Below, in pieces: positions 8,104 through 8,819 of a stretch of 64,000 bases of DNA (positions are counted from its first letter, which is position 1; each line of letters opens with the position of its first letter). A program made the position numbers and the translations under genes. The DNA is from an uncultured bacterium. GTDB taxonomy: Bacteria > Babelota > Babeliae > Babelales > Vermiphilaceae. The notes under the pieces were generated by a model, which was not told where the DNA came from, did not search any database, and saw nothing but the letters and a program-made list of their open reading frames with translations. The DNA is taken from contig OY970212.1 of assembly GCA_963713925.1 (NCBI GenBank), positions 96,001 to 160,000 of the forward strand, read 5' to 3'.

Positions 8104-8203
8104 CCCCACGCTAACGCACGCGGACTCCAAAAAATCGCACGGGTTTAATTGATTTTATTACGTGTCATATTTGCTGAAGAGATTGTATGAACTATATTTT
8201 GAA

Positions 8204-8819
8204 GATCCTGAAACGAGTTCAGGATGACATTTTAAGTGTCTGTTGAATTTTTTGATAAGAAGAGATCGATGTTATTTGGGTTTTATATTTTGTTAACGTG
8301 TTATGATTTTCTCTGGCAACTCCTTGTTGTGTCATCCTGAACTCGTTTCAGGATCCAATTTTTAACAATTATGAAAAAATATTATGTTTACATACTCACT
8401 AATAAATACAGAGGAACTCTTTATACAGGGGTTACCAATGATTTGCAGCGAAGAATAAAAGAACGTAAAGAAAAACTCATTGCGGGTTTTACTAAAAGAT
8501 ACAGTTTGACCAAACTTGTGTATGTGGAAGCATTTGAACATATCGAAGATGCTCTCAATGCGGAAAAAAGATTAAAGCGGTGGCATAGAGAATGGAAGAT
8601 TGATTTAATTGAAAAAAATAATTCCTTATGGAAGGACTTGTATGAACTCTATTTTGAAGATCCTGAAACAAGTGCCTGTTGACATTTTATAGTTTCCGTA
8701 AAACAAATTGCCACGAATTGAGGTTCGTGTAATGTTTAAGAGCGGGATTTATACAAAAAGAAAATTAAGTTTTATAAAAAGATCATATCATTTTGTCATC
8801 CTGAACTTGTTTCAGGATC
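8204..8819. repeat. REP-like family A, four copies of GTCATCCTGAAC(T)(C/T)GTTTCAGGATC
   Basis: Copies at 8204-8228 (rev), 8331-8355 (fwd; exact reverse complement of the first), 8659-8683 (rev, degenerate, overlaps the gene end) and 8795-8819 (fwd). Confidence 0.92.
8371..8682 (+). CDS. Small stand-alone GIY-YIG nuclease family protein
   Basis: YYVYIL...LYTGVTNDLQRR...FTKRY..TKLVY.E...A...EKRLKRWHREWKIDLIE..N..WKDL. Confidence 0.93.
   Translation: MKKYYVYILTNKYRGTLYTGVTNDLQRRIKERKEKLIAGFTKRYSLTKLVYVEAFEHIEDALNAEKRLKRWHREWKIDLIEKNNSLWKDLYELYFEDPETSAC

Follow-up and report, generated by a model that had tools for sequence, protein, structure and literature searches.

A GIY-YIG nuclease gene of the Ssn family between two inverted tagged hairpins: a likely mobile and likely weakened cassette

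A nuclease gene among tagged hairpins

The stretch of DNA analyzed here (the window, 64 kb) contains a small GIY-YIG nuclease gene accompanied by four copies of a hairpin repeat. The question raised by this locus is whether nuclease and repeat belong together, as a RAYT transposase belongs with its REP sequences, and whether the enzyme itself spreads the repeat. The original prediction answered yes to both, describing a nuclease-plus-REP selfish unit. Its repeat coordinates, its inverted-pair spacing (gaps of 102 and 111 nt within the two pairs) and its 103-aa GIY-YIG ORF are all correct. The features of the locus are the following.

7504..8103, + strand: host gene, HAS-barrel-like, below the Pfam cut-off, normally adjoining ftsY (Pfam, synteny)
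8176..8234, + strand: what is left of the 3' part of a sibling ssn gene, extending into the left outer hairpin; reads ...RLYELYFEDPETSSG-stop
8204..8228, - strand: outer hairpin on the left, intact; likely belonged, as its 3' end, to a lost neighbor cassette
8327..8684, + strand: core cassette, hairpin(+) - ssn gene - hairpin(-), unpaired GTC tags outward
8331..8355, + strand: upstream tagged hairpin, intact; TGTC tag, 8-bp stem, 5-nt loop, C after the stem
8371..8682, + strand: ssn gene, 103 aa, single-domain GIY-YIG nuclease (PF01541, SsnA ortholog match, conservation table)
8464..8466, + strand: codon 32, Arg versus His in homologs; proton-shuttle position, four residues past the catalytic Arg
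8659..8683, - strand: downstream hairpin, 5' arm broken as assembled (5 mismatches to the repeat), over the last ssn codons
8795..8819, + strand: right outer hairpin, intact; oriented as for the 5' end of another cassette
8863..9756, + strand: host gene ftsY, downstream

For three of the four predicted hairpins (8204-8228, 8331-8355 and 8795-8819) a fold of -6.1 kcal/mol is obtained, with z-scores from -3.05 to -3.48, while the fourth, 8659-8683, returns no fold (z +0.47). This last repeat overlaps the end of the ssn gene instead of lying beside it. The gene directly upstream is also not rnhB, as had been assumed, but the HAS-barrel-like ORF. A LexA/CI-like repressor (HTH_3 and Peptidase_S24) is encoded at 6033-6710 on the minus strand, divergent from rnhB.

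Membership of the Ssn family

The Ssn family comprises GIY-YIG enzymes of a single domain, with oriented NTS/SRM hairpins on either side of their genes (Chenal 2025, PMC11893778). The 103-aa window protein, well under the 150 aa of the small single-domain GIY-YIG class, matches PF01541 over residues 3-77 (E 6e-15), the sole other domain match being the overlapping T5orf172 model. With the 94-aa SsnA ortholog of Neisseria gonorrhoeae it shares 51% identity over 86 of 94 residues (blastp E 9e-31). This ortholog was taken from a plasmid-collection record; it lies inside an NTS cluster and is exact to two of the three ssnA primers tried, and a search of viral contigs with an ssnA primer returned no match. 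Against the genome it has a single match under E 1e-10, the window gene (tblastn E 5e-25), the other small GIY-YIG proteins returning E 2e-6 or worse. Chenal et al. count a protein as an Ssn homolog when the alignment has E <1e-10 and takes in more than 75% of SsnA (PMC11893778), and the window protein lies within both limits (86/94 aa, E 5e-25).

The catalytic residues tested in SsnA, Y6, Y17 and E64, correspond to Y7, Y18 and E65 of the window protein, in which the conservation table reports Y7, Y18, R28, E65 and N84 as kept. A 37-row tree with weak support (5 of 34 inner branches starred) places the protein among hairpin-flanked homologs and SsnA, and sets two long-branched UPF0213-like paralogs apart from it. 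A PDB sequence search returned the UPF0213 protein 1ZG2 (E 2e-6) as sole match and no Ssn structure, and the NCBIfam profile search gave nothing above cut-off.

The locus also looks like an Ssn locus (cd10448, GIY-YIG_unchar_3): a gene of ~100 codons has oriented, GTC-tagged hairpins on both sides. As in SsnA sites, the hairpins keep both of the bases that matter most there, the tag G and the C that follows the stem. In contrast to the SRM, the stem is AT-richer, with 4-5 mismatches to the published pattern (minimum 4, 5, 4 and 4 for the four hairpins); unlike SsnA, the His31 equivalent is Arg, and one hairpin is broken as assembled. The missing exact match lowers the case for an SRM by pattern and leaves Ssn membership untouched, because the SRM is one of several features of the family; the host lineage lies outside the 29 genomes that defined it (PMC11893778). 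By sequence, the window gene is thus a member of the published Ssn family and not a new system. The same paper includes in its discussion a comparison of the hairpin-gene-hairpin arrangement with insertion sequences and REP-associated transposases (PMC11893778), and the idea that the system was undescribed is not supported.

The hairpins resemble a second group of repeats. The CGTC-tagged REP superfamily, which includes Neisseria dRS3 and Rickettsia RPE-4 and RPE-6, is linked with no dedicated transposase and no nuclease in the available text of its description (Di Nocera 2013, PMC3733652). Its defining traits, the tag, a stem of 8-9 bp opening with AT, a loop of 4-5 nt and a short tail, are all found in the window hairpins, which combine a TGTC/CGTC tag, an 8-bp stem opening with AT, a 5-nt loop, a CCA-like short tail and frequent heterodimers. 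A possible likeness of the window hairpin to RPE-4 found no confirmation in a search of the genome with the RPE4 protein model TIGR03777, which returned no match.

Pairing of nuclease and hairpin

The pairing of nuclease and hairpin was assessed on 108 homolog loci, 29 from the phylum and 79 from other genomes, two near-duplicate pairs included. A tagged hairpin lies within 400 bp of the gene at 45 of them and on both sides at 33 (19 of the 29 within the phylum), compared with 5 and 0, respectively, of 2160 shuffled flanks and none of 27 ftsY control loci. The flank check called for by the original prediction therefore came out positive. The strict scan reports no hairpin at the remaining 63 loci, and these were counted against the Ssn-cassette reading; in the published set, an SRM is present on both sides of 42% of Ssn homologs (PMC11893778). 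The exact SRM pattern occurs at 23 of the 108 loci and on both sides at 11, one of these being a 65%-identical homolog (L065).

Two near-duplicates (L068 and L109) were kept for these counts and for those of the His residue discussed below, and left out of the orientation, stem and tree set. In the 31 two-sided loci of that set the upstream hairpin is always on the plus strand and the downstream one always on the minus strand, at a fixed distance. At 19 of the 31 loci both ends of the cassette have the same 8-nt stem, versus 80 of 930 pairs drawn between loci. On the weakly supported tree, stem types are clustered, with 1 of 500 shuffles scoring as low for the window stem type, a value inflated by close kin. 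Published Ssn homologs also bind and cut their hairpin as single-stranded DNA (PMC11893778). A cognate pairing of the two families, nuclease and hairpin, is thereby supported, and this part of the original prediction is upheld.

The cassette and its probable mobility

A homolog in a different genus of this family (L036), at a different genomic site, is similar to the window DNA exactly over 8327-8684 (76%). As this homology stops at the inner hairpins, the unit is the inner cassette, and the reading as two REPIN-like doublets was rejected.

The outer hairpins call for another explanation. The segment 8176-8234 is a direct repeat of 8631-8689 (59 nt, 85% identical), indicating that the final codons of another ssn copy lie ahead of the left outer hairpin, and tblastn aligns ssn residues 86-102 with this remnant. 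An outer plus-strand hairpin also occurs downstream of ssn at two homolog loci (L037 and L051), and at L051 a second ssn gene then follows, the hairpin(-), spacer, hairpin(+) junction between the two genes being as in the window. Since tandem ssn genes are present at 4 of the 108 loci, and the L051 junction is alike, the outer hairpins are most simply read as what likely remains of a tandem run of cassettes. The two outer-inner spacers are weakly alike (26 of 1000 shuffles score as well, and 200 of 1000 once the first 12 nt are removed), and therefore do not establish a simple recent tandem duplication. Positions 8153-8170 read as an ssn gene start (FYYVSY), which could belong to an internally deleted copy.

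Comparison with relatives points to insertion. Among 27 relatives' ftsY loci, 11 have the HAS-barrel gene upstream, and ssn is missing at the site in all 11, a presence/absence check that the original prediction had suggested. The gap between the HAS-barrel gene and ftsY, 759 nt here, is 10-244 nt in 9 of these relatives and is filled by unrelated ORFs in the other 2. None of the 11 is congeneric with the window genome, so that they do not show the precise junction of an empty site or a target duplication. The insert has a GC content of 0.33, versus 0.43-0.45 for its neighbors. At larger scale, ssn homologs occur in 54 of 261 genomes of the phylum, often in several copies, some with stops, and in 10 of 79 other genomes of the family, none being seen at the window site. 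Taken together, the ssn module looks mobile, and the cassette was likely inserted recently between the HAS-barrel gene and ftsY. In the available text of Chenal et al., mobility is put forward as a hypothesis only (PMC11893778); a search for a later paper showing Ssn-driven transposition found none, few subscription papers being within reach.

Probable decay of the window copy

The residue at position 32 is His in all 119 listed homolog proteins, in the Neisseria ortholog and at all 108 loci, but Arg in the window protein. One contig from a sequencing run (X1) covers codon 32 and agrees with the assembly, at a depth of 2.4 and from what may be the source sample. Position 32 stands four residues past the catalytic Arg, the place of the Tyr/His proton shuttle in GIY-YIG enzymes (PMC3045582), and, from this spacing rather than from a structure, would be the equivalent of H498 of ANKLE1, where a His-to-Ala change lowers activity 150-fold (PMC10287932). 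The residues mutated in SsnA, as given in the available text, do not include this His (PMC11893778). Because an invariant His is replaced, the window copy is likely impaired; by analogy, the change is predicted to lower cutting strongly and perhaps to leave binding. The locus thus likely holds a known selfish cassette in weakened form.

The broken downstream hairpin is harder to interpret. The four changes of its arm recur in seven dispersed copies, each with its own subfamily base (G000:C1:168275, 191406, 319156, 569418, 1190763, 1209921 and 1277400), and a second broken-arm form occurs twice (168131 and 996547 of the same contig). The four changes are absent from the 260 other genomes of the phylum and from the metagenome contigs, being confined to this assembly. 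At one place of the second form, identified by a 123-nt body unique to that locus, an X1 contig, which could be chimeric, has an intact arm; the X1 contigs cover codon 32 of the window gene, with 8659-8683 outside their coverage, and two further runs (X2 and X3) yielded no contig here. A systematic error of sequencing or polishing in the assembly is a plausible, if unproven, cause of the broken arm, the alternative being patchwise conversion.

Proposed mode of spread

We consider it probable that the locus is an Ssn gene with two inverted tagged hairpins, likely a horizontally moving selfish cassette that is likely now weakened. Ssn enzymes cut single-stranded DNA only, a few bases 5' of the tag (PMC11893778). 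By analogy with SsnA, an intact form of the window enzyme would bind the strand with the tag in its folded, single-stranded state. The GTC tag and the C that follows the stem would serve for recognition, and cleavage would fall about 5 nt 5' of the tag. With the tags pointing outward, the nicks would fall just outside the cassette ends and on opposite strands, at ~8325 on the plus and ~8689 on the minus strand. GIY-YIG enzymes are reported to hydrolyze DNA in one step (PMC3045582), and therefore, unlike the HUH enzymes of the RAYT type, would not rejoin strands. Spread would then depend on the host recombining or repairing DNA at the nicks, probably next to hairpins already in place, where cassettes may build up in tandem.

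A bolder version would make hairpin-ssn-hairpin units autonomous transposons, in which the GIY-YIG nuclease nicks outside the ends, inserts the unit beside cognate hairpins and leaves emptied pairs behind, the window locus being a tandem run that later decayed. We hold this version to be possible but doubtful; if it were true, Ssn would be the missing mobilizer of CGTC-tagged REPs.

Dispersed hairpins and alternative readings

In its strong version, the original prediction takes the nuclease as the equivalent of a RAYT that itself cuts and pastes the hairpin, or REPIN-like doublets, across the genome. The locus does resemble RAYT/REP systems (REPIN, REPtron) in having a small enzyme gene with cognate tagged hairpins both flanking it and dispersed in pairs. 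It differs in that the enzyme is a GIY-YIG hydrolase and not a HUH Y1 transposase, which sets it outside the RAYT class, in its GTC-type tag where REPs have GTAG, and in having one hairpin per side instead of doublets.

As originally noted, the 64-kb window has no copy of the repeat beyond the four at the locus, yet 35 further copies with at most 3 mismatches are found in the genome. Genome-wide, 38, 43 and 47 matches are reported at up to 3, 4 and 6 mismatches, compared with none at up to 3 or 4 in three order-4 Markov genomes and 0, 0 and 2 at up to 6. Beyond the locus, 43 copies remain at the loosest threshold, one probably by chance, and the ~42 related hairpins are mostly paired as heterodimers with tags outward, like an emptied cassette, which agrees with the RAYT-like reading. 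So does the gene content: one ssn-type gene is present, and the Y1 transposase model PF01797 finds only a 30-aa fragment, far away. The hairpin type is also found in 17 of 53 ssn-positive versus 17 of 207 ssn-negative other genomes of the phylum, the counts including non-independent kin; the stem variant is found in 35 of the 261 genomes.

Several observations argue against this reading. No dispersed copy lies within 1 mismatch of the hairpins of the locus and just one within 2. Seventeen short elements (140-268 bp) have a separate terminal inverted repeat of ~17 bp, 13 of them with identical 3-bp flanks, a pattern that we take to be that of a DDE-type, IS5-type MITE. Many dispersed hairpins sit, as heterodimers, inside such elements of ~143 bp, with TAA/TTA flanks (for example G000:C1 187357-187500 and 947296-947439, and a left end at window position 45446), and the claim that the nuclease spread them is thereby weakened; the hairpins of this genome seem, from their positions, to have been dispersed mostly as passengers of another element. 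Profile searches of the genome for an IS5-type transposase (PF01609, PF13586, PF13359) found none, and a search of the metagenome contigs for the terminal-repeat motif gave no match. In addition, the resident protein lacks the invariant His, and a hydrolase offers no chemistry for strand transfer. We therefore regard the RAYT-equivalent reading as unlikely: of the selfish unit originally proposed, the mobile appearance stands and propagation by this protein is not supported.

Other repeats accompany the hairpins. Three copies of an IS110-family element (G000:C1:678411-679748, 1121058-1122448 and 1276161-1277551, L146-L148; PF01548 and PF02371 on one copy) lie at the same position inside the terminal-repeat element, which suggests that this element is their target. 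A further family, a GC-rich palindromic repeat, is found at 9822-9885, upstream of a 482-aa ORF, and near 2611, 18761, 24413 and 34564 of the window; pieces of it are inserted inside some hairpin dimers elsewhere in the genome.

The cassette might instead have been domesticated, the host keeping a cutting or binding-only protein that restricts incoming single-stranded DNA with such hairpins or acts at the dispersed hairpins. The ORF is intact and keeps every other invariant residue, its targets abound in the genome, SsnA catalytic mutants retain single-stranded DNA binding, and SsnA modulates transformation in Neisseria meningitidis (PMC11893778). Nevertheless, the patchy, lineage-specific distribution described above, with no homolog at the window site in other genomes of the family, and further departures from the consensus at positions 64 and 85 make domestication very improbable. 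That an ordinary repair-type GIY-YIG gene merely neighbors a REP cluster by chance, in a repeat-rich genome and with many homologs devoid of detectable hairpins, is scarcely credible, since orientation and distance are constant across all 31 two-sided loci, the gene end overlaps the hairpin, the cassette boundaries are shared with L036 and the controls are near zero.

Other GIY-YIG genes of the genome

A second small GIY-YIG gene of the window (45650-45934) encodes a protein ~35% identical to the ssn product (tblastn E 2e-6 to SsnA). The gene lies between inverted copies of another hairpin repeat (45550-45982), and its product keeps the His. A close paralog with the same layout is found at G000:C1:353920-354308, and the 14-nt core of the repeat has 89 genome-wide matches at up to 1 mismatch. 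Judged by layout, this resembles another pair of nuclease and repeat, one outside Ssn proper, and it may be more novel than the ssn cassette. A third small GIY-YIG gene (L001, G000:C1:1102300-1103250) lies just downstream of a putative tRNA gene, among copies of yet another GC-rich repeat.

Significance for the Ssn family

The preferred reading, a likely weakened Ssn cassette, makes the locus an instance of a published family, and as such it matters modestly. The target repertoire of the family is under-counted, because the published SRM pattern misses the stem variant of the window. The cassette ends shared with a relative at another site, the empty sites and the tandem remnants provide comparative evidence for Ssn mobility. 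As a candidate for a new specificity in cutting single-stranded DNA, the intact L036 relative would be better suited than the window copy.
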